Assembly: GCA_041650775.1 (NCBI GenBank)
Contig: JBAZKO010000001.1
Span: forward strand, 134,008-198,007
Reading direction: 5' to 3'
Length of the DNA: 64,000 nucleotides
Source: Patescibacteria group bacterium
Lineage (GTDB): Bacteria > Patescibacteriota > Patescibacteriia > Patescibacteriales > UBA12465
The position numbers and the translations under genes were made by a program. A model generated the notes under the pieces. That model was not told the DNA's origin and made no database searches. It was given only the letters and a program-made list of their open reading frames with translations. Positions 1,181 through 54,042 of the stretch are shown here, one piece after another (positions within the stretch are counted from its first letter, which is position 1; every line of letters starts with the position of its first letter).

Positions 1181-2522
1181 ATTTGATCAATTCCCCTTCC
1201 AAACCGAACGGCCTGGCTTTAGTAATTTTGACGGAAACGAACATTCCGTCGATTTTTTTCAAACTATTTGTTTTTCGACCGGAAGCCGGATTATTGATTA
1301 AGACCGTCTGATAAGCGCCGGTTTTGCCGTAATACTGGCCGCGCTTATTCTTCCCTTCCGCCAAGACGATAACCGTCCGGCCCAAACACCGTTCATTATA
1401 ATCAGTCGCGGTTTTTTTTAAAATCTCATTGATAAAATAGGCACGGCGTTTTTTCTCGGCCGGAGCGACATCATCCGCCAATCGATAAGCGGCGGTTCCG
1501 GGCCGCGGACTGTACTGGGAAATATAGGCCATAGAAAATCCGATATCTTTAAATAACTTTACCGTATTCCCGAATTGGCGACGGGTTTCGCCCGGGAAAC
1601 CGACAATCACATCAGTCGTAATCGCGATATCGGGCCGGACAGCGCGAACTTTCCTGATCAAATTTTTATAATGCGCGGCGCTATAACGGCGATTCATCGC
1701 TTTCAAAATCAGATTATCGCCGGACTGAACCGCCAGATGCAGATGATTACAGATTTTTTCCGAAGAGCCAATAACTTTAATCAGGCTGTCGCTCATATCT
1801 TTGGGGTGGCTGGAAGAAAACCGGATCCAAAACTTTCCCGGAATATTCGCTATCCGTTCTAATAACCTCGAAAAATCAACCAGCGCGCCGCCCGCGCCGG
1901 CGGCGTCCCGATAACTGTTAACGTTTTGCGCCACCAAAATAATTTCTTTATAGCCGGCTTTAACCAGAGCGCGCGCTTCTTTAACGATATCTTGCGCCGG
2001 CCGGTAAACTTCGCGACCGCGGGCGTAAGGCACAACGCAGTAGGAACAAAAATTATTACAGCCATTGCCGATAGGAATATAAGCGGTAAACCGGCTTTCA
2101 TGTTTTGGCAAAATACCCAGATATTTTTCGCCCTGAGACAGACGAATCGCCTCCAGACTGAAATACGGATTAAATTCTTCCCCGGCCAGAAGCTCCGGAA
2201 GTTTCAGCATCTCGCTGATTGGCAAAAAGATATCCGCTCGTCCCTTCAGACGCCTCTGAACGTCTTCGCGCCGGCTCAAACAGCCGGCGATAACAATTTT
2301 CGCCGCCGGGTTATGCTTGCGGATCTGATTGGCCAGACCATAAGCCCGGTCTTCAGCCGGTTGCCGGATGCCGCAGGTATTGATAATAACCGCGCCCGCT
2401 TTCTTGAAATTCGCTACCGCTTTAAAACCGTGGCTCTCCAAAAAAGCGGCCAGCCGTTCGCTGTCCACTTGATTCATCTGACAACCGATAGTAATTATAT
2501 TGTACGTTTTTACAGTTTTCAT
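1179..2522 (-). CDS. miaB: radical-SAM tRNA methylthiotransferase (MiaB family)
   Basis: 447-aa ORF. N-terminal UPF0004-like segment (ITIGCQMNQVDSE), radical-SAM cluster motif CNNFCSYCVVP, and a C-terminal TRAM-like tail. Confidence 0.88.
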   Translation of the reverse strand: MKTVKTYNIITIGCQMNQVDSERLAAFLESHGFKAVANFKKAGAVIINTCGIRQPAEDRAYGLANQIRKHNPAAKIVIAGCLSRREDVQRRLKGRADIFLPISEMLKLPELLAGEEFNPYFSLEAIRLSQGEKYLGILPKHESRFTAYIPIGNGCNNFCSYCVVPYARGREVYRPAQDIVKEARALVKAGYKEIILVAQNVNSYRDAAGAGGALVDFSRLLERIANIPGKFWIRFSSSHPKDMSDSLIKVIGSSEKICNHLHLAVQSGDNLILKAMNRRYSAAHYKNLIRKVRAVRPDIAITTDVIVGFPGETRRQFGNTVKLFKDIGFSMAYISQYSPRPGTAAYRLADDVAPAEKKRRAYFINEILKKTATDYNERCLGRTVIVLAEGKNKRGQYYGKTGAYQTVLINNPASGRKTNSLKKIDGMFVSVKITKARPFGLEGELIK

Positions 2523-4407: not shown

Positions 4408-6435
4408 ATGAACAGATCAAAAACAAGTTGGCCTAAAATCGCCGAAAATATCAATAATCGGATGTTACTGCTTATATCTCTAACGGCCGTATTCGGGGCG
4501 GGAATCTACTATTTCTACTCTTTAAACCAGCGTGGAATTATCTTGTCTTTGATTTTAATTGTCGCCGGTTTTTATTTTTTTAAAAACCGACCGGGAATAT
4601 TCGGTCAAACCGTTAAAAATACTCCTGCGAAAAAAATCGCGACCGACACGGAAAACGAAAAAAAACCGGGGGCGGTCAATAAAAAAAATATCCTCCTAAT
4701 CTTAGGCTATACCGTATTTTATTCACTCCTGTTTTTCCGGCTTTGGTCCAGCCAGAGCGAACGCGCCTTGATTTCCCCTTGGGAGGTAGTAAATTATTCT
4801 TTTTTTTGGTTCTATGGCCTAAGTTCTCTGATTTTGATCTTCATTCTGATAAATAAAGAGATTGGCGGCGGTCTCAAAAAAATCTTTCTTTCCCTGCATT
4901 TTTTCCTGTCCTTCGCTGTCGCGATAATCATTTATAAAATCGGCTACGGTTACGATCCTTTCGTCCATCAAGCAACGATGGAGCTAATCGCGGCCAAAGG
5001 GTTAGTTCTGCCCAAACCGCCCTATTATTTGGGTGAATACAGTTTAATTGTCATAATACATAAAATCAGCGGATTATCTATTTACTGTTTGAATAAACTC
5101 CTGGTTCCCGGTTTGGCCGCCTTATTCCTACCGACAGCTCTTTTCCGATTCTTCAAAAATGTTCACGCGAAAGAAGCGGACAACCCGGCCGTTTCTTCAG
5201 CTTCCTTCTTGGCAATCTTATTTCTATTAATTCTGACTTTCTCTCCTTTTATTGTCACTACGCCGCAAAATCTCAGCTATTTATTCCTAATTTTAACTGT
5301 GCTGGCCGGTTTTAGCCGTGCCAGTCTGCCGGAAATACTCATACTGGCGGTCGCGACCGCGGCAATTCATCCTTTAACCGGCTTGCCAGCTCTGGGCTGG
5401 ACCGTCTGGCTGGTCTTTAAAAAATACCAAACAGCGCTGGCGCCAGTTTGGCAAAAAATCATCAAGTTCGCGATTTTTCTGTTCACGGCTCTGGCTCTGC
5501 CGTTCGCTCTGTTTTTTACCGGGGGGGGCGGTCTGAAAAAAATTGACGGCGGTTCATTATTGGAACCGATAAAAAGCCTTTTCGCCGGTCTTAGCCTGGC
5601 TGGACGGGAAGATTGGCTCCTGAATTTCGTTTATTTTTTTGCCACTAACTATAATCTATTGCTGATAATCGCCATCGGCGGCGGCTTATGGTATTTTTAC
5701 GGACGCCGCTGGAGAGATAAAATAACCGACGAAGATCGTGGCCTTTTTAACGGCCTAATTTTTATTAATCTTTCTCTGCTGATCGCCTATTTACTGAGCG
5801 GTCGAATTCTTTTTAATGATTTAATCAGCTACGAACAAGCCGGCTATGCCAGCCGAATACTGATAATCATGGTTATTTTTTTCCTGCCTTTTATTCTGGT
5901 AGCACTCCGGGGATTAATCCTAAAAATACGCCGCGCTGATCCGGCGATACGGACAAGCTGGCTGATTTTTGGCATCAGCCTTTTGACCGCCAGTCTTTAC
6001 GTTTCTTATCCCCGCTTCGATAAATATTTTAATTCGCGCGGTTATAGCACCAGTCAGAACGATATCGCCGCCGTTCTGGCAGTCGACCGCGCCGCCGGCG
6101 GTCCTTATATCGCGTTGGCTAACCAACCGGTGAGCGCCGCCGCCCTTCAATCATTCGGTTTTGATCATTACTATCAAGGATCAAACGGACAAATATATTT
6201 TTATCCGATTCCGACCGGCGGAGCGTTATACCAGTATTATCTTGAGATGGTTTACAAAAACCCCGACCGCCAAACCATGTTGAAAGCTTTGGACTTAGTC
6301 GGGGTCGATGAAGGCTACCTGATTGTCAACAAATATTGGTATCAGAGCGGCCGAGTAATAAACGAAGCGAAACTAACGGCCGACGATTGGCAAACGATAA
6401 ACAATGAAATTTATATTTTTCAATACGAGCGTTAA
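4408..6435 (+). CDS. large polytopic membrane protein with C-terminal soluble domain (possibly another GT-C-like enzyme)
   Basis: 675-aa ORF divergent from the previous gene. More than 10 hydrophobic segments, with a GYGYDPF loop after the early helices. No family assigned with certainty. Confidence 0.4.
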   Translation: MNRSKTSWPKIAENINNRMLLLISLTAVFGAGIYYFYSLNQRGIILSLILIVAGFYFFKNRPGIFGQTVKNTPAKKIATDTENEKKPGAVNKKNILLILGYTVFYSLLFFRLWSSQSERALISPWEVVNYSFFWFYGLSSLILIFILINKEIGGGLKKIFLSLHFFLSFAVAIIIYKIGYGYDPFVHQATMELIAAKGLVLPKPPYYLGEYSLIVIIHKISGLSIYCLNKLLVPGLAALFLPTALFRFFKNVHAKEADNPAVSSASFLAILFLLILTFSPFIVTTPQNLSYLFLILTVLAGFSRASLPEILILAVATAAIHPLTGLPALGWTVWLVFKKYQTALAPVWQKIIKFAIFLFTALALPFALFFTGGGGLKKIDGGSLLEPIKSLFAGLSLAGREDWLLNFVYFFATNYNLLLIIAIGGGLWYFYGRRWRDKITDEDRGLFNGLIFINLSLLIAYLLSGRILFNDLISYEQAGYASRILIIMVIFFLPFILVALRGLILKIRRADPAIRTSWLIFGISLLTASLYVSYPRFDKYFNSRGYSTSQNDIAAVLAVDRAAGGPYIALANQPVSAAALQSFGFDHYYQGSNGQIYFYPIPTGGALYQYYLEMVYKNPDRQTMLKALDLVGVDEGYLIVNKYWYQSGRVINEAKLTADDWQTINNEIYIFQYER

Positions 6436-6452: not shown

Positions 6453-8831
6453 TTACCGGCTTTCCTGATAATCCCAAACCGGACCGATGGAAAAAATCTT
6501 ATTATTTCCTTCCTGATGAGTCAGCACCAACAATTTCAACCGGCTCAAATCTTCTCTGAGACCGGTTTTTTGAACCGCCGAGCGCAGATCCAATTGTTTG
6601 ACGGCCGGCGTGGCCGGATCGGTTTTCAACTGTTTGATAAAATCGGCGACCAGTTCATTATCGGCGGCGGCCAGAGTCTCTCCGGTCAATTCTTTTATTA
6701 TTATCTGCTTCAACGCTCCCAGGCTGACGGAAAAATTTTTTATCTCCTGCCACGCCGGACGCACTTCCGTTTCCAGCCGCAAAGCGGAAAACATTCCTAT
6801 AATCATATCACTGTCGGCCATTAATTCATTAATCAGGCTAAGATTCGGTTCGACGTAAGAATTTTCGTTCCAACGGGAGAAATTATTAAAATTTTGTCCA
6901 CTAAAAGGCTGACTAACCTCATATTTTTCCAATGGCAGTTGAAGATTGATCCAGGCGCCGACCGCGGTCGCCAAAGATTTGTCTTGCCAGGCGGACGAGT
7001 GCGCGAAAACCGGCCACGCGCTTTTGTTCGCCTCCAAAGAAATCTTAAGTAAGTTCAAATTCGACCAATAATTCGATAGGTGCCAAACCTGGTTTTTATT
7101 CAATTCGTCCCGCAGACGAGCCGCTTCCCGTTCATAATTAGAGTAGTTGGTATTCTCTTCAAAATAAGCATTGTCGCTCAGCGGGTAAATCAAACCGATT
7201 ACATCCAAAGCGAAGCCGTTGCAACGGCTGACGGTCTTTTTCACGGAACAAGCCGTAACGTTATTGGCTTTAGTGCTGGTTCCTAGGTAGGTATCTACGG
7301 CCGGAACCGTCAAACGGCTAAAAAGGTAATCATTAGGCCAATACGGCTCGGCCAACATCTTAAAACCTAATCTAGCTCTTAGCGCCAAATCGTTTTTCGC
7401 CAGGCCGCCGGAAATCTCGGGGAATTCATAAGCCAATAATTTAACGCGCAATTTTTCCAAATTTCCAGCCGCCGCTTTATTTTGATCACCGAATAATTCC
7501 TCAATCTTGTAATCCGGACCGAAAAGTTCGTTTAAAGAATCACGATAATGGACATAATTCAAATCATCCCGCAAGCCCTTAAAAAAAGACATGACTTTAT
7601 AAATCCGCGCCCATTTATTCTTCAACTCCGACAAAGAAGAAAAATCCTGGGCAATCAGACTGACAGCCGTTAAATTTATCCGCCAGTCGGCGGCGTCCAG
7701 CAAACAATCAGGACAATTCTTATCGCGATAATTGAGCGGCCAGACCGAATTCAACCATTTAGTCGTCAAATAAAAATTGTTCAATTTGGCGTTGGAGCGG
7801 TAATCGGCCGGCACGGTAAAATCTTTATAGTTCCGGTTATACAATAAAACCGGAGATTTTGCCTGATCTTTCGCTCCTTCCCGAATAAGCTTCTCTTCCG
7901 CCAGAACATCATCCCGCAGATAAGGCGGAACCGTAAAGTAAAAACGTTCCCCCTCGGACGCGGAGAACCGGTCTTTTTCAGTCGTTCCCGAAGCGGAAAT
8001 TTGGTTGATGGCCGGTTTTAAAAGATTGAGCGCGACCGCAAAAAAAGCGGTTTCCAGCCTTTCACCTTCCAGAATGGAATCATTAACATTGCCGATAGAC
8101 GCCAAACGGGCCTCATAACGATTTTTCGCGGCCGTATAAAGCTCTTTGTTTATTTCCCAGAGGTTATCATAAAAGACATTTTCTTCCGTGTCTTTGAAAA
8201 TTTTTTTTAAAATATTTTGATAATAATAAACCAAAAAATCGGAAGTGATTAAGATTGGAACCTGTTTATTATCCAACTGGCCGTAGAGCGAATAAAAATC
8301 CGGCGCTTCTTTCGGCCAAGGATTGTCAACTAACGCGAAACCGTAATTACTCAGGCTCTCCAGACCGGGATCAAGATTTAACTTGCGGGAAACGTCGTAA
8401 TAATTCATGACGTCTATCTTAACATTCAAAGGCAATTTATAATCATTTATTTGGGGCGTGAACTGATTATTCGGCGCCTTATAAAAATCGGCGAACGATA
8501 AATATTCAATGGCCAGGCCGGATAAATCCGTCCCCGTGGTTGTCGCTGTTTCCGTTTGCTCTGATCCGGGTAGGATTGCCGGAGTTTCCGTTGCCGGCGT
8601 ATTAGTGGCGGCCGGAATCAAATCAGCGCCGGTTGAAGACGGCTGATTTTTAACTGGCCAATATTTTTTAACCGCGAAAAAAAGGCCGAGAGCCAAAAGA
8701 ATGACCGCTCCGGCCAAAGCGGCAATCAGCAAAATTTTTTTCAGCGAAAAACGGGGTGGTTCCGGAACGCCACCGGAATCGTCGGTTGGCTCAAGTTCGG
8801 ACGATAAAATCATCGGCTGTTCGTTGAACAT
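6453..8831 (-). CDS. N-terminally membrane-anchored extracytoplasmic protein, unknown function
   Basis: 792-aa ORF with ATG at 8831. One TM helix (ILLIAALAGAVILLALGLFFAV), then a Thr/Pro-rich linker, then a large soluble domain. Its start is 1 nt from the mltG stop. Confidence 0.5.
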   Translation of the reverse strand: MFNEQPMILSSELEPTDDSGGVPEPPRFSLKKILLIAALAGAVILLALGLFFAVKKYWPVKNQPSSTGADLIPAATNTPATETPAILPGSEQTETATTTGTDLSGLAIEYLSFADFYKAPNNQFTPQINDYKLPLNVKIDVMNYYDVSRKLNLDPGLESLSNYGFALVDNPWPKEAPDFYSLYGQLDNKQVPILITSDFLVYYYQNILKKIFKDTEENVFYDNLWEINKELYTAAKNRYEARLASIGNVNDSILEGERLETAFFAVALNLLKPAINQISASGTTEKDRFSASEGERFYFTVPPYLRDDVLAEEKLIREGAKDQAKSPVLLYNRNYKDFTVPADYRSNAKLNNFYLTTKWLNSVWPLNYRDKNCPDCLLDAADWRINLTAVSLIAQDFSSLSELKNKWARIYKVMSFFKGLRDDLNYVHYRDSLNELFGPDYKIEELFGDQNKAAAGNLEKLRVKLLAYEFPEISGGLAKNDLALRARLGFKMLAEPYWPNDYLFSRLTVPAVDTYLGTSTKANNVTACSVKKTVSRCNGFALDVIGLIYPLSDNAYFEENTNYSNYEREAARLRDELNKNQVWHLSNYWSNLNLLKISLEANKSAWPVFAHSSAWQDKSLATAVGAWINLQLPLEKYEVSQPFSGQNFNNFSRWNENSYVEPNLSLINELMADSDMIIGMFSALRLETEVRPAWQEIKNFSVSLGALKQIIIKELTGETLAAADNELVADFIKQLKTDPATPAVKQLDLRSAVQKTGLREDLSRLKLLVLTHQEGNNKIFSIGPVWDYQESR

Positions 8832-24062: not shown

Positions 24063-25988
24063 TTACTTCTTCTCCTCCACTTCCCCCTCCACGACATTAT
24101 CATCTTTTTTATCAGCTCCGGCGCTAGCACCAGCCTCAGCGCCCGCGGCACCCGCTCCCGCCGCTCCTGCTCCGGCCGCATTCGCGCCCGGTTGCTGGTA
24201 CATCGCCGCGCCAATCTTTTGCGCGATGGTATTTATCTCTTCCATCTTTTTCTTCATCTCGTCGAGATTACCAGACTCCTTCGCCTTTTTAAGTTCGGCA
24301 TTCTTGTCTTCAAGTTCTTTCTTATCCTCGGGCTTCATCTTATCGCCCGATTCCTTGATCATCTTTTCCATCGTGAAGCTGACGGCATCGGCCTGATTTT
24401 TTATTTCTACTTCTTCTTTCTTTTTCTTATCATCCTCGGCGTGTAGTTCCGCTTCTTTCTTCATCTTCTCGATTTCATCTTTTGACAAGCCGGAAGATGC
24501 GGTAATCGTAATCTTCTGCTGTTTATTCGTCGCTTTATCGGTCGCGGAAACGTTCAAAATGCCGTTGGCGTCCAAATCAAACTTGACTTCAACCTGCGGA
24601 ATACCGCGCGGCGCGGACGGGATGCCGTCCAAAGTAAAATGACCCAGAGTCTTGTTATCGCTCGCCATCGGGCGTTCGCCCTGGACGATATGGATCTCGA
24701 CCGCGGTCTGGCCATCAGCGGCCGTGGAGAATACTTGCGATTTAGAGGTCGGAATAGTCGTATTCCTTTCGATTAAAGGCGTGGCGACGCCACCCAGGGT
24801 TTCGATACCTAAAGTGAGCGGGGTAACATCTAATAACAAAACGTCCTTAACATCGCCCTGGAGCACGCCGGCTTGTACCGCCGCGCCCATAGCCACGACT
24901 TCGTCCGGATTAACGGTCAGGTTCGGTTCCTTGCCAAAGAATTCTTTCACTTTCTGTAATACCAAAGGCATGCGGGTCATACCGCCGACCATTAGAACTT
25001 CTTCAATATCATTAATGGAAAATTTAGCGTCAGCGAGGGCTTTCTTGCACGGCTCGATTGTTTTTTCGACCAGATCCATAACCAAAGCTTCGAGTTTCGC
25101 GCGGGACAACTTCATAACTAGATGCTTCGGACCGTTCGCGTCAGTCGTAATGAACGGCTGGTTAATCTCGGTCTCCTGCGCCGTCGATAATTCGATCTTC
25201 GCTTTTTCCGCCGACTCTTTTATTCTCTGTAGAGCTAAGGTATCCTTAGACAAATCGATGCCCTGGTCTTTCTTAAATTCTTCGATTATCCAATTAATAA
25301 TCCTCTGATCAAAATCCTCGCCTCCCAAATGAGTGTCGCCGTTAGTAGCCTTTACTTCAACAGTATCGGCGGAAATATCAAGTACGGAAACATCAAAAGT
25401 TCCGCCGCCCAAGTCATAGACGACAATCTGCTGGCCAGCTTTTTTATCAAAGCCATAAGCAAGCGCGGCCGCGGTCGGCTCATTAATAATGCGTTTCACA
25501 TCCAAACCGGCAATCTGGCCGGCGTCTTTGGTCGCTTGGCGCTGAGAATCGTTAAAATAAGCCGGAACGGTAATGATCGCTTCCGTGATCTTTTCGCCTA
25601 ATTTCGCTTCCGCATCGGCTTTTAATTTAGACAGAATCATCGCTGAAAGTTCCTGCGGCGTATATTCCTTATCGCCCAATTTCACTTTGACGCCTTCGCC
25701 AGCCTGTAAAATCTTATAGGGCACGGTTTTTAAATCGCGTTGGACTTCATCTTCGCCGAAATGGCGGCCGATTAAGCGCTTGACGGCGTAAACCGTATTT
25801 TCCGGATTAATGACCGCCTGGCGCTTGGCCGATTGGCCGACGATGCGTTCATTGTTCTTGGACAGCGCGACAATAGACGGGGTCGTGCGGTTACCTTCGA
25901 TGTTCTCAATGATCTTCGGAAGACCGCCCTCCATGATCGCCATGGCGGAGTTCGTCGTTCCCAGATCGATTCCTAAAATTTTTGACAT
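24063..25988 (-). CDS. dnaK: chaperone DnaK (Hsp70)
   Basis: 641 aa with canonical Hsp70 motifs ([25 protein letters not shown]). Confidence 0.98.
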
Positions 25989-35549: not shown

Positions 35550-35594
35550 TGACGGAATAGAAATTGTATAGTGCTCATTAAAAAATCAATAAAT

Positions 35595-36038
35595 ATGAAA
35601 CATTTTAGGGATACAAAAAAATTTTTGTTGCTGGTTAGGCTGATTACCTTATTCTCATTTGATACCATTTTCCTTGGAAAAACAAAACTTAGCGGAAAAG
35701 TTCCAGCCAGGACAATTAATAAAGCTTATCTGTCGGAATACGGAGAAATTATTTGGGAATCGCGCTGTTCCGAAATTGCCTGGAAGAGCATAAAATGGGA
35801 AATGAGGTCCTGCTGTATATCGAAAGAAGGAAATTTCCTAAAAAAGGAGTTTGACGGATTAGCCGCCAACATAAAAGAAGCCCTTAAAAAAACCGGCATC
35901 AAAGAAGAGGAGGCGACGTTATTTGTCGCGGAGCTGGAAAAAGCGGTTCTTCAAAAAGCTTCTTGGAGTGCGAACTCCGAAAAAGAATTTCCCGGAGGAA
36001 TCGGTCGGGTCAATTCGCTTACGGCAATAATGAATTAG
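35595..36038 (+). CDS. hypothetical protein (orphan), N-terminal hydrophobic segment
   Basis: The ORF opens at GTG 35571, and ATG 35595 gives MKHFRDTKKFLLLVRLITLF.... It has its own promoter and terminator. No recognisable domain. Confidence 0.45.
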   Translation: MKHFRDTKKFLLLVRLITLFSFDTIFLGKTKLSGKVPARTINKAYLSEYGEIIWESRCSEIAWKSIKWEMRSCCISKEGNFLKKEFDGLAANIKEALKKTGIKEEEATLFVAELEKAVLQKASWSANSEKEFPGGIGRVNSLTAIMN

Positions 36039-36061
36039 AATCAGTTCAATAAAACAAAAAC

Positions 36062-36092
36062 AAAGGACGGTAATTTAATCCCGTCCTTTTTT
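36062..36092 (+). terminator. intrinsic terminator (AAAGGACGG-N10-CCGTCCTTT + T-run)
   Basis: Read directly, 24 nt after the stop at 36038. Confidence 0.8.
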
Positions 36093-36113
36093 AAATTCAA
36101 AATCATCTGGTCA

Positions 36114-36142
36114 TTTACAAAAATAGGGCTTTATGCTATATT
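36114..36142 (+). promoter_or_regulatory. candidate promoter TTTACA-17-TATATT
   Basis: Read directly. It is followed by an AGGAG Shine-Dalgarno-like element 9 nt before ATG 36192. Confidence 0.6.
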
Positions 36143-36191
36143 TTTTTATTACCTTAACAACAGAACAAACTTAATATAGGAGATATTGATC

Positions 36192-36983
36192 ATGGAACAA
36201 AAAGTAATCAAAAAAATCGTCTGGTCTTTCGTTAAAAACGAACAACCGGAAAAGGCTTTAGAAGCCGCCTTAAAATTAAAGCGAGATAAAAAATTTGATA
36301 AATTCTTGATGCGGATAGCGAACTATCATCTGGAACGAATAGTCTTGCCTAAACGTTTTATCTGGCGAAAACGAAAAAAATTGTCGGATTCCGAGCGATT
36401 TTTGATTTTTAAACATCTTAATTTAGCCTACGAAACCACCGGTAAAATTGAATCACTCAGGCTAAGAACGTCCATCAGAAAAAAAATCTTCAGGAAAGGC
36501 TTAGAATGTCTCAAAATTCCAGACGGCCCGATAAAGGAATTGGCTGAATTTTTGTATATTATGTTGCGCTACAGGATAATTAAAGGATCTGGGTTTGAAT
36601 CTTGCCAAGATCCAAATTACTTTCTAAAACGAGTAATCAAGGATTATCTGAAAATTTCTCATCTTGATGGGAGAGAAATAGTTAGGGTCGCTAAACTGCT
36701 GACTATCGGTGAATGCGTCAAAAAAATGAAAAAATTAATTCCCGTCTTTATTAAACGCGGGGACTACGAAGCTTTGGAATTAATATGGAAGACCTATGGC
36801 ATATTAAAAGAGGAAATCGCTTGGAAATCGGAAAAAATAATTCTTTCCTGTTTGGAAAAAGGGAAAATAAAGGAAGCTGAGGAGGCTCTATCTTTAATAG
36901 TCGATGCGAATAAGCGGCAAGAATACCATGAATTGTTGAGCGTCGATTTTGAATCTGCGGAAAAAGGGAAAAAAAATAATTAA
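36192..36983 (+). CDS. hypothetical alpha-helical repeat-like protein (orphan)
   Basis: 263 aa counted from ATG 36192 (TTG at 36186 in the track). Lys/Glu/Leu-rich and predicted helical. It has its own promoter, SD and terminator. Confidence 0.5.
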   Translation: MEQKVIKKIVWSFVKNEQPEKALEAALKLKRDKKFDKFLMRIANYHLERIVLPKRFIWRKRKKLSDSERFLIFKHLNLAYETTGKIESLRLRTSIRKKIFRKGLECLKIPDGPIKELAEFLYIMLRYRIIKGSGFESCQDPNYFLKRVIKDYLKISHLDGREIVRVAKLLTIGECVKKMKKLIPVFIKRGDYEALELIWKTYGILKEEIAWKSEKIILSCLEKGKIKEAEEALSLIVDANKRQEYHELLSVDFESAEKGKKNN

Positions 36984-36990
36984 AGAAAAC

Positions 36991-37019
36991 AAAAGGATGT
37001 TTATCAGACATCCTTTTTT
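36991..37019. terminator. bidirectional intrinsic terminator (AAAGGATGT-N7-ACATCCTTT)
   Basis: 9-bp perfect stem flanked by A and T runs. Confidence 0.8.
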
Positions 37020-37028
37020 AAATAAACA

Positions 37029-37044
37029 CTGCGGGACCTGGATT
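37029..37044 (-). repeat. 16-nt exact direct repeat of the tRNA-Gln 3' end (CTGCGGGACCTGGATT on plus strand)
   Basis: Identical to 37242-37257. The copy covers the discriminator, the acceptor 3' strand, the T-stem 3' strand and part of the T-loop. Confidence 0.9.
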
Positions 37045-37200
37045 TCCGCCTCACTTGCCGGCCAGCCGGCTCGTTCGTTGTCGCGGTCAGCGCCCGAAGC
37101 TCCCCCGGAGCTTCGTCCGACGCTCGCTACGCCTGTGCCCCGCTGGACACAAGCTAAGCTCGCTCCTGACCTGTTCGAATCCATAGACCCTGAAGACGAT
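37029..37200. other. GC-rich ~170-nt element able to fold as one long imperfect hairpin, bracketed by terminators (candidate structured ncRNA or integration scar)
   Basis: There is no credible CDS here, and GC is strikingly higher than the flanks by eye. The apex is GAAGCTCC-GGG-GGAGCTTC. The terminal arms are an exact and a degenerate inverted copy of the tRNA-Gln 3' end. Confidence 0.4.
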
Positions 37201-37206
37201 AAAAAT

Positions 37207-37231
37207 AAAACCATAACAAAGTTATGGTTTT
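37207..37231. terminator. bidirectional stem-loop AAAACCATAAC-AAA-GTTATGGTTTT
   Basis: 11-bp perfect stem immediately 3' of tRNA-Gln on the minus strand. Confidence 0.75.
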
Positions 37232-37241
37232 ATTTTTATAG

Positions 37242-37312
37242 CTGCGGGACCTGGATTCGAACCAGGATAAACGGCTTCAAAGGCCGCTGTCCTACCGTTA
37301 GACGATCCCGCA
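37242..37312 (-). tRNA. tRNA-Gln (anticodon UUG)
   Basis: Manual cloverleaf. The acceptor stem is TGCGGGA/TCCCGCA, the anticodon loop is CTTTGAA, and the T-arm is CCTGG-TTCGAAT-CCAGG. CCA is not encoded. Confidence 0.9.
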
Positions 37313-37374
37313 AAGATATGAGGATATTATTAAAAAATAACCCGGATGTCAATCAAAGCGAGCCCGCTTCCCGC

Positions 37375-53235: not shown

Positions 53236-54042
53236 TTAACCTTTCCGACTAAGCTTAAAAATATATTTTCCCAGATAGTAATTATATTTCCCTTGACGCC
53301 AAGTCTCTTTCAGCCCGGCACCGTGAACGATGTTTTCCCAAAAAGATTTAAGAAATTTTAAAAGCGGCAATAGACGAGATCTCGCCTGCTGGCGGGAAAA
53401 ACTATAAGTTTTAAGCCAATCAGTTCTCTCGGCCTGAAAATTGTCCAACTCTTTAAAATCTTTCAAAATATATTCCGCTTGGATCATCGCCCATCTTTTC
53501 TGTTTATCCGCCTGGGCTGTCGAATAATCCTTAACCTGGTGTCCTAAAATATAAGTGGAAATTTTCATCCGTCCTCGAGTCTGCCAGGCTAAATGCGGCA
53601 TGGAAAACCAATATAAATCAATTTTCTTAAACAAAATCGATTTGCGGTTCTTTCCCGGCAAGAACCGGCCGTTATAGTGACTCAACCACCGGAACGAATA
53701 GGCACTTAAACCTTCTTCCTCAGCCTCTTTAACCAAACGTCTTAAGCTATTCTTTAATTCATCAGACAAAAATTCATCGGCGTCTATCCGCAAAAGCCAA
53801 TCACCTGATGCCTGTTCGATAGCCAAAACCAAATGAGCCTCCATTATCCCGACATGCGGCCGGAGGAATATTTTCGCGTCATACTCGCGACAAATTTCCA
53901 AAGTCTCGTCCTGGCATTCGCCGTCATGGACGACAATAATTTCATCAACCGCCTCCCGCAAACTTTCCAGGCAACGGCGAATATTCTTCGCCTCATTATA
54001 AACCACCAGACAGGCGGAAATTTTTATTTCCTTATTCCCCAT
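53236..54042 (-). CDS. family-2 glycosyltransferase
   Basis: 268 aa with ISACLVVYNEAKNI, VVHDGECQDET and RIDADE. Confidence 0.82.
   Translation of the reverse strand: MGNKEIKISACLVVYNEAKNIRRCLESLREAVDEIIVVHDGECQDETLEICREYDAKIFLRPHVGIMEAHLVLAIEQASGDWLLRIDADEFLSDELKNSLRRLVKEAEEEGLSAYSFRWLSHYNGRFLPGKNRKSILFKKIDLYWFSMPHLAWQTRGRMKISTYILGHQVKDYSTAQADKQKRWAMIQAEYILKDFKELDNFQAERTDWLKTYSFSRQQARSRLLPLLKFLKSFWENIVHGAGLKETWRQGKYNYYLGKYIFKLSRKG

Follow-up and report, generated by a model that had tools for sequence, protein, structure and literature searches.

Organization of the tRNA-Gln locus

The window, i.e., the whole stretch of 64,000 nucleotides analysed here, is derived from a Patescibacteria group bacterium of the Candidatus Falkowbacteria type and represents a housekeeping region according to the top families in the Pfam listing of its ORFs. 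On the minus strand, ftsE and ftsX are followed by a promoter, tRNA-Gln(UUG), a 19-bp hairpin, a GC-rich segment, a repeat of the tRNA 3' end and a terminator. The features of this locus are given below, where the hairpin, leader, core and tRNA-derived tail together form what we call the unit or module.

37324-37352, minus strand: sigma-70-like tRNA promoter, TTGACA-17-TAATAT (promoter scan)
37242-37312, minus strand: tRNA-Gln(UUG), the insertion target, with T-loop TTCGAATCC (ARAGORN; Rfam 64 bits)
37242-37257, minus strand: proximal direct repeat, tRNA-Gln nt 58-73 (repeat search)
37029-37240, minus strand: whole inserted unit of about 212-215 bp (hairpin, leader, core and tRNA-derived tail)
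37199-37239, no strand assigned: hairpin h1, the opening part of the unit, with a 19-bp perfect stem (arms 37199-37217 and 37221-37239)
37183-37198, minus strand: leader CGTCTTCAGGGTCTAT, 16 nt, of the recurrent 'CATCTTCAGGATTTAG' leader type
37040-37182, minus strand: GC-rich structured core, 143 nt (covariance model 137 bits, E 9e-45)
37176-37183 with 37039-37048, minus strand: core helix P1 (covariance-supported fold)
37166-37171 with 37085-37090, minus strand: core helix P2 (covariance-supported fold)
37127-37158, minus strand: core hairpin P3 (covariance-supported fold)
37096-37114, minus strand: core apex hairpin P4 (covariance-supported fold)
37074-37082, minus strand: core single-stranded motif GACAACGAA (conserved motif)
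37057-37070, minus strand: core hairpin P5 (covariance-supported fold)
37029-37044, minus strand: distal direct repeat AATCCAGGTCCCGCAG, a copy of tRNA-Gln nt 58-73 (repeat search)
36991-37017, minus strand: terminator hairpin of the pre-insertion flank (arms 36991-37000 and 37008-37017; scores as a minus-strand terminator)

The 16-mer CTGCGGGACCTGGATT occurs exactly twice in the window (37029-37044 and 37242-37257, in the same orientation), while the chance expectation for matches with up to three mismatches is 0.28; the duplication of the tRNA-Gln 3' end, which had been described in the initial annotation, is exact. The inverted copy of the T-loop, also pointed out there, is a perfect 11-nt inverted repeat (GTTCGAATCCA, 37173-37183). 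The segment between the repeats was rightly described as GC-rich and non-coding, with a GC content of 71% across 37050-37149 against 44% window-wide. A coding region was rejected, as the overlapping ORFs are artefacts of the GC-rich sequence and the substitutions are compensatory. The lone other GC spike of like height in the window (24063-24253) is coding; it belongs to an Hsp70/DnaK-type gene (24063-25988, minus strand), whose Gly/Ala-rich 3' end it forms.

Hairpins stand on both sides of the segment, as had been claimed. The stem of h1, which consists of an A-rich arm and a T-rich arm and resembles a bidirectional terminator, stands as a strong hairpin between the core and tRNA-Gln. The hairpin at 36991-37017, which is also kept in the sister genome L126, is presumed to be the original tRNA-Gln terminator, pushed away by the insertion. 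The sole promoter-like site near the element is the tRNA promoter at 37324-37352, and an own promoter for the core was rejected, since the promoter scan found none on either strand. As well, two ORFs of 155 and 265 aa without a Pfam match (35571-36983, plus strand) converge on the element; this flank is common only to the sister locus L126, and the ORFs may belong to a variable region.

The earlier statement that no integrase is present at the locus is borne out. No match was obtained when the window was searched by tblastn with the serine recombinase, none of the 10 integrase-sized window ORFs scanned individually is an integrase, none appears among the top families of the Pfam listing, and the repeat-bracketed 212-bp interval contains no integrase gene, only spurious ORFs. 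Rfam 15 returned only the tRNA and spurious hairpin matches, even at E<=10, and ARAGORN found tRNA-Gln; no Rfam 15 family thus covers the segment, and no description of the module was found in the literature searched. A tmRNA or permuted tmRNA, suggested by the 5' GGAUUCGAAC and the tRNA-like 3' end, was rejected for want of a conserved tag frame and of any ARAGORN or Rfam match, and a group I intron or other ribozyme was dismissed for its missing Rfam signal.

Structure of the core

The core is a folded single strand that is maintained by compensatory substitutions. In the model-based alignment, paired cells amount to 94.4% against 72.9% in shuffled data, and double changes are found in 25 of the 30 pairs. 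The covariation score is 0.539 against 0.168 for shuffled alignments (0 of 500 shuffles reach it), and slid controls range from 0.04 to 0.09. The fold is branched and consists of a closing helix P1 (GGAUUCG with CG..AAUCC), then P2 enclosing P3 and P4, then P5 and the return strand of P1. The structured nucleic acid that the initial annotation had considered is thus real, and so is its apex GAAGCTCC-GGG-GGAGCTTC, which is that of P4, but not the single end-to-end hairpin; a 6S-like long hairpin is likewise contradicted by the branched fold and the absence of an Rfam match. The apex of P4 reads CC-GGG-GG on stems that vary (AGCUCC, AUAUGCC, GCAUCC, GUGUCC), while the single-stranded motif GACAACGAA or GGACAAGUGA is conserved between P2 and P5. 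Motifs without variation in the core include GGATTCGAACA, a GAAGCGAG-like motif, GACAA and GCGGAAATCC.

Helix P1 (GGAUUCG / CG-GA-AAUCC plus two covarying base pairs) copies both strands of the T-loop region of the target; all seven base pairs of the C56-C62 duplex are matched, and a bulge of 2 nt interrupts the helix. Its extension into the tRNA-derived part stops after exactly 2 bp, at nt 63-64 (p<0.001 and p=0.009). In the window, these nucleotides pair with the final 2 nt of the leader, and AATCC plus 2 nt of the distal repeat form the 3' strand of P1, while the remainder of the repeat is unpaired. Pairing of the outer ends past these 2 bp, as first suggested, is not conserved, and the wider complementarity of the 5' flank to the tail is no better with its own partners than with permuted ones (-4.96 vs -5.02 kcal/mol). 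A single end-to-end hairpin, or a 5' flank fitted to the whole tail, was rejected, since no more than 2 bp reach significance. No conserved pairing partner exists for the acceptor-strand part of the tail, which speaks against the idea of tRNA-like ends processed with the tRNA; because it is unpaired, this part is more likely a DNA-level footprint than a piece of mature RNA.

Several comparisons point to the tRNA strand as the folded one. GU/UG pairs outnumber AC/CA pairs (169 vs 36), many G.A pairs are present in addition, the consensus energy is -24.1 kcal/mol on the tRNA strand and -13.4 kcal/mol on the other strand, and the same pairs give -59.3 kcal/mol against -46.6. Of 89 copies, 83 fold with a lower minimum free energy as the tRNA strand than as its complement. 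When pairs are predicted for each strand separately, however, they are neutral (33 GU vs 41 AC), for which reason we only regard it as likely, on these folding models, that the fold acts on the tRNA strand.

A family of units behind tRNA genes

A covariance model (R1) was used to scan related loci, phages and plasmids. It recovered 106 copies in 83 loci, so the search of relatives for further GC-rich cores, which had been proposed with the initial annotation, was productive; the hosts are Falkowbacteria-type (Patescibacteria) bacteria. A search with the conserved-block pattern yielded 79 metagenome loci and zero IMG/VR contigs, while model R1 found zero copies in INPHARED phages and PLSDB plasmids. 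Therefore, a phage or plasmid origin is unsupported and was rejected. An apparent second copy in the window (53854-54000) was discarded as spurious, because it is coding sequence with a weak match (12.5 bits).

For comparison, 80 related ftsX loci were collected. A tRNA-Gln lies 3' of ftsX in most of them, is missing in about 10, and does not adjoin ftsX in a few, e.g., L016, L027 and L028. GC-rich homologues behind tRNA-Gln are present in L009 (three copies), L010, L015, L017, L018, L022, L023, L024, L026 and L041, and they end in the tRNA 3' end of their own genome, except in L026 (one mismatch) and L041 (degenerate).

The unit is composed of four parts, i.e., hairpin, leader, core and tRNA-derived tail. 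The hairpin, present in all 88 copies examined, begins 0 to a few nt past the tRNA end and has a GC core between an A-rich and a T-rich arm, with 17-22 bp in most copies (6-26 overall). The leader measures 7-29 nt, and the core of about 143 nt is bounded by the invariant GGATTCGAACA and GCG(G/A)(A/T)AATCC. The model-detected copies lie about 55 nt behind host tRNAs of six recorded species, namely Gln(UUG), Gln(CUG), Ser(GCU), Ser(GGA), Val(UAC) and Lys(CUU), and a single 809-kb contig carries units at three tRNA loci. The T-loop TTCGAATCC is found in 42 of 42 distinct host tRNAs, while none of the Gly, Thr and Arg tRNAs at those loci, whose T-loops are mostly different, carries a unit, a distribution partly affected by the copy-finding method. 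Judged from these sequence comparisons, the module has been shown to be a discrete, multi-copy insertion unit specific to tRNA genes with the T-loop TTCGAATCC, in keeping with the small non-autonomous element targeting tRNA genes that had been among the first suggestions.

Some divergent copies were also seen. In L069, a weak model match (1314-1450, minus strand; 14.5 bits, E 0.007) immediately downstream of tRNA-Thr(CGU) may represent a divergent copy of the family, which would add a seventh tRNA. L037 contains a mini module of about 95 nt (5060-5169 and 7324-7435), in which the hairpin, GGGATTCGAAG, a single internal hairpin and AAATCC with the repeat are retained; it looks like a deletion derivative keeping the ends. 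In L013 (5019-5072), a window-type hairpin directly follows tRNA-Gln without core or repeat, and could be what is left of a lost module or else a native terminator of that type.

Empty sites, repeats and arrays

Four pairs of filled and empty sites with exact boundaries after C74 were found (L047/L024, L066/L151, L055/L041 and L003/L139). In all of them, the flank behind the tRNA in the empty genome is the flank behind the distal repeat in the filled genome. Because relatives that are otherwise collinear thus have empty sites, in which the flank directly follows the tRNA, the displaced tRNA 3' end is an insertion footprint, as had been proposed. The distribution of the module is patchy among close relatives, and tandem module arrays are present in L009, L023, L125 and L151.

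The repeat is modally 17 nt (A58-C74); that of the window has 16 nt, and that at a CCA-encoding tRNA-Lys (L136) has 28. The tail is usually identical to the 3' end of the adjacent tRNA. In five loci (L026, L092, L139, L143 and L088) it differs from the neighbouring tRNA in the T-stem part only, and in about five (L041, L086, L110, L112 and L119) it is degraded or broken by a palindrome; secondary events are needed to explain these mismatched, degraded and interrupted tails. Short GC-rich perfect palindromes (CCTGCCTGCC/GGCAGGCAGG and similar) break up tails or loops, and were seen in the tails of L161, L100, L110, L112, L133, L138, L144 and L086 and inside the cores of L018 and L096. In L161, where the tail resumes past the palindrome, the arrangement resembles an inverted duplication or a very small insertion.

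Gene content behind tRNA-Gln, from about position 5060 of the loci onward, is hypervariable across the 80 ftsX loci (154 ORFs fall into 126 clusters), while the upstream synteny is conserved. At least 10 of the 80 contigs stop at, or a few nt from, the tRNA-Gln 3' end, which suggests assembly breaks at repeats or strain variation. Such breaks may reflect the module repeats, a practical consequence for assemblies.

Exchange of parts between loci

The locus L126 is the sister of the window, with 97-100% identity in the flanks and 99% in FtsX (151 aa compared). The two nevertheless differ in leader, P3 and P5, with compensatory changes. The L126 core, which lies behind tRNA-Gln, is 98% identical to the L090 core behind tRNA-Ser, with GGATTCG and AAATCC as the exact limits of this identity. 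Shuffling between loci extends to hairpins and leaders, and whole hairpin modules are common to Ser and Gln loci. The hairpin and leader follow the tRNA type more tightly than the core does, since the nearest neighbour is of the same tRNA type in 56 of 63 cases for hairpin plus leader and in 48 of 63 for the core.

Recombinases at the same tRNA junction

Large serine recombinases (Resolvase, Recombinase and Zn_ribbon_recom domains) adjoin the same junction in L001, L002, L005, L042, L148 and L089. In L001, L002, L005 and L042, the recombinase gene converges on tRNA-Gln, with its 3' end reading into the tRNA. Related recombinase genes read into other tRNAs in the viral contigs L081-L084. In all these loci, as well as in L089 and L148, the last ~18 codons of the gene are the antisense of a tRNA 3' end (Gln, Trp and others), and some of the elements also carry a G2P-type Rep. 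Three of the genes, identified by their Pfam domains, are as follows.

L001, 5009-6664, minus strand: serine recombinase gene
L089, 6823-8496, minus strand: serine recombinase gene
L148, 375-1814, minus strand: serine recombinase gene

From the array-internal P/P' junction of L089 and the attL of L001, the crossover was deduced at about the point between ..TCCC and CGAGC. The distance from GTTCGAA to the crossover is 17 nt in the tRNA and 22 nt in the P half-sites, whose GTTCGAA-like motifs thus lie 5 nt further from the crossover. Serine integrases follow a +5 attP/attB spacing rule, and the deduced half-sites fit it. The module tail has the attB-type spacing of 17 nt, but shows GGCGGAA where the half-sites have GTTCGAA, so it is not identified as an attP or attB of the serine recombinase.

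The modules themselves share no sequence or motif with these elements, and model R1 found zero copies in the serine recombinase elements and related viral contigs. A role as right end or replication origin in the serine recombinase/Rep elements was accordingly rejected, as no model matches, shared motifs or GC-rich region exist there. The two kinds of element nonetheless meet, since loci with a "tRNA-cargo-module" order are tandem arrangements of a serine recombinase element and a module, and both orders occur (L148 and L162). No recombinase was found consistently beside module arrays. Among the top 25 families listed for 124 neighbouring ORFs, there is no tyrosine integrase and no TnpB, IscB or IS110-type gene, and none of the latter three stands next to the module in the window.

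Interpretation and alternative explanations

The reading towards which we lean, with modest confidence, is that the segment 37029-37240 is a non-autonomous, recombinase-dependent insertion module with a structured RNA-like domain at the tRNA-Gln 3' end. The repeat would be an att-type identity block beginning in the T-loop, and a block that starts there leaves the tRNA intact. A site-specific recombinase encoded elsewhere would insert the module in trans; candidate enzymes are the tRNA-3'-end-specific large serine recombinases at the same junction. Because insertion parts the tRNA from its native terminator, the module would bring its own hairpin in place of the displaced one. The core may then act as a tRNA-strand RNA via read-through from the tRNA promoter, and recombination would swap cores between loci. 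Several observations weigh against this reading: no recombinase was found in the module, in the window or consistently beside arrays, the serine recombinase elements are dissimilar to the module, and its tail lacks GTTCGAA; besides, the core is without a promoter and is cut off from the tRNA by a strong hairpin, some tails call for secondary events, and the separately predicted pairs are neutral as to strand.

Alternatively, the copies could be resident ncRNA genes, i.e., old and vertically inherited genes rather than mobile DNA, with a 3' tail that mimics a tRNA for a functional reason. Presence and absence would then result from deletion between the 17-nt repeats and homologous re-acquisition, and the near-identical cores from gene conversion. 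The strong covariation, with conserved loops and single-stranded motifs, agrees with this explanation, and so do the homogenisation of cores between loci with boundaries at the homology ends, the patchy internal differences between window and L126 inside identical flanks, and the absence of a dedicated recombinase among the genes examined. However, resident genes are hard to reconcile with a patchy occurrence among close relatives with clean empty sites, with tandem arrays, some interleaved with serine recombinase elements, and with hairpin modules held in common by Ser and Gln loci; the tail past 2 nt, being unpaired, would probably also be trimmed from an RNA. We regard resident genes as a doubtful alternative.

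It is similarly tentative whether the fold itself specifies the target, either as a folded single-stranded DNA attachment site or as a guide RNA that steers a trans-acting enzyme to tRNA genes. In the former case, as for CTX-phage attP(+) and integron attC, the closing helix of the single-stranded core would recreate the duplex of the T-loop region, and a host tyrosine (Xer-like) recombinase would join it to the tRNA gene. The match of P1 to all 7 bp of C56-C62 and its two pairs covarying with nt 63-64, the repeat start exactly at A58, the restriction of hosts to the T-loop TTCGAATCC and the pairing bias to one strand would all be accounted for, and rolling-circle Rep (G2P family) elements, presumably moving via single-stranded DNA, occupy the same tRNAs. 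Nevertheless, an attachment site of this kind is unlikely, as no recombinase partner was identified, the inner helices and single-stranded motifs are conserved far past what a spacer needs, the module is absent from the viral, phage and plasmid collections searched, and it has no similarity to the Rep-bearing elements. A guide similar to bridge or omega RNA, which would bring a trans-encoded enzyme to the target by pairing of GGAUUCGAAC with its top strand and of the AAUCC tail with its bottom strand, seems very unlikely. Such a guide would explain why a scaffold is followed by 16-17 target-matching nt, why near-identical scaffolds carry different tRNA tails and why the 5' anti-T-loop motif is invariant; yet genes of TnpB, IscB or IS110 type were found neither beside the module in the window nor among the frequent neighbours listed, and since the tail sits where an att duplication is expected, a guide function is not needed. 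If the fold did specify the target, ultra-small CPR bacteria would possess a new integration system that is structure-specified or guided by nucleic acid, and the closing helix that copies the target site makes a concrete candidate for a new way to specify integration sites.

The decayed scar of a larger integrated element, such as a prophage or island remnant, which the initial annotation had also listed, would suit a bracketed interval without genes at a tRNA-Gln 3' flank that is a hypervariable integration hot spot. It is hardly credible in view of more than 100 copies with the same length and parts, their compensatory changes, and the recurrence of one unit behind different tRNAs, and the same applies to a chance repeat, given that an exact 16-mer is not expected by chance.

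Comparison with known systems

Under the preferred reading as an insertion module, the closest parallels are integrase-borne islands and prophages at tRNA genes. Williams reportedly described, in 2002, sublocation classes of att identity blocks in tRNA genes from the T-loop to the 3' end. Like the module, such islands and prophages leave an intact tRNA followed by a displaced 3'-end copy that starts in the T-loop, have empty sites in relatives and can be inserted serially at one tRNA. The module, in contrast, measures only ~212 bp, has no integrase and no genes, possesses an RNA-like fold and uses six tRNA species. The cis-mobilisable elements (CIMEs) of streptococci are integrase-less, att-flanked, kb-sized deletion derivatives of a helper element. 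They resemble the module in being non-autonomous, in their att-like flanking repeats and in their tandem arrangement with autonomous elements at the same site; unlike them, the module has nothing in common with the serine recombinase elements, being neither derived from an autonomous element at the site nor provided with the same att arms, and its secondary structure is under selection.

In attC and CTX-phage attP(+), the recombination site is rebuilt in a stem of imperfect inverted ends, structure is conserved over sequence, and arrays build up at one chromosomal site, all of which recalls the module. The differences are that no IntI or Xer partner was found, R''/R' boxes are missing, the inner domain is conserved in its motifs and the target is a tRNA; moreover, the genes upstream are ftsE and ftsX, and no GTTRRRY boxes were seen by eye. 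MITEs and casposons are comparable in being small, multi-copy, non-coding and flanked by a target direct repeat, and casposons favour tRNA 3' ends, where they duplicate 14-15 bp of target. The module differs from them in that its inverted repeat comprises only the 5 nt GGATT/AATCC, its direct repeat, modally of 17 nt, ranges over 16-28 nt, and no related autonomous transposon or Cas1 was seen. A casposon-like fixed-length duplication is weakened by this variable repeat length, with 28 nt in L136, and by the tails mismatched only in the T-stem. The local serine recombinase elements use the same tRNA 3' ends and stand beside modules in arrays, but they are autonomous, AT-rich and without core-like sequence, and their P half-sites mimic the T-arm with +5 spacing rather than matching the host tRNA exactly.

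Non-autonomous elements at tRNA attachment sites are, as a kind, already known; new here are the small size, the conserved fold, the helix that mimics the target and the range of several tRNAs. The module adds a large, well-supported structured nucleic-acid family, absent from Rfam, from the poorly explored Patescibacteria, and indicates that insertion at tRNA genes can involve units of ~215 bp that keep the tRNA and a terminator intact.

Other cassettes and cargo in the arrays

A second junction type, CCGTTCCAAyyyTATCCCAGTCCCCGAGC, is located at the ends of cassettes in L009 (6060-6092), L015 (6215-6247 and 7884-7916), L037 (~7296-7325) and L080 (7970-7998). Many such array cassettes begin with a conserved AAATAGACAAGAATACCAC..GTGGTATTTTTGTTATATA, and the cassette ends are probably the right and left ends of other recombinase elements. 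Recurring cargo near the arrays (L085-L163) includes Fic/DOC, Bro-N, methyltransferases, AAA_21 (AbiEii-like), G2P Rep, NUDIX and DUF3800-like genes, which are typical of islands or defence.
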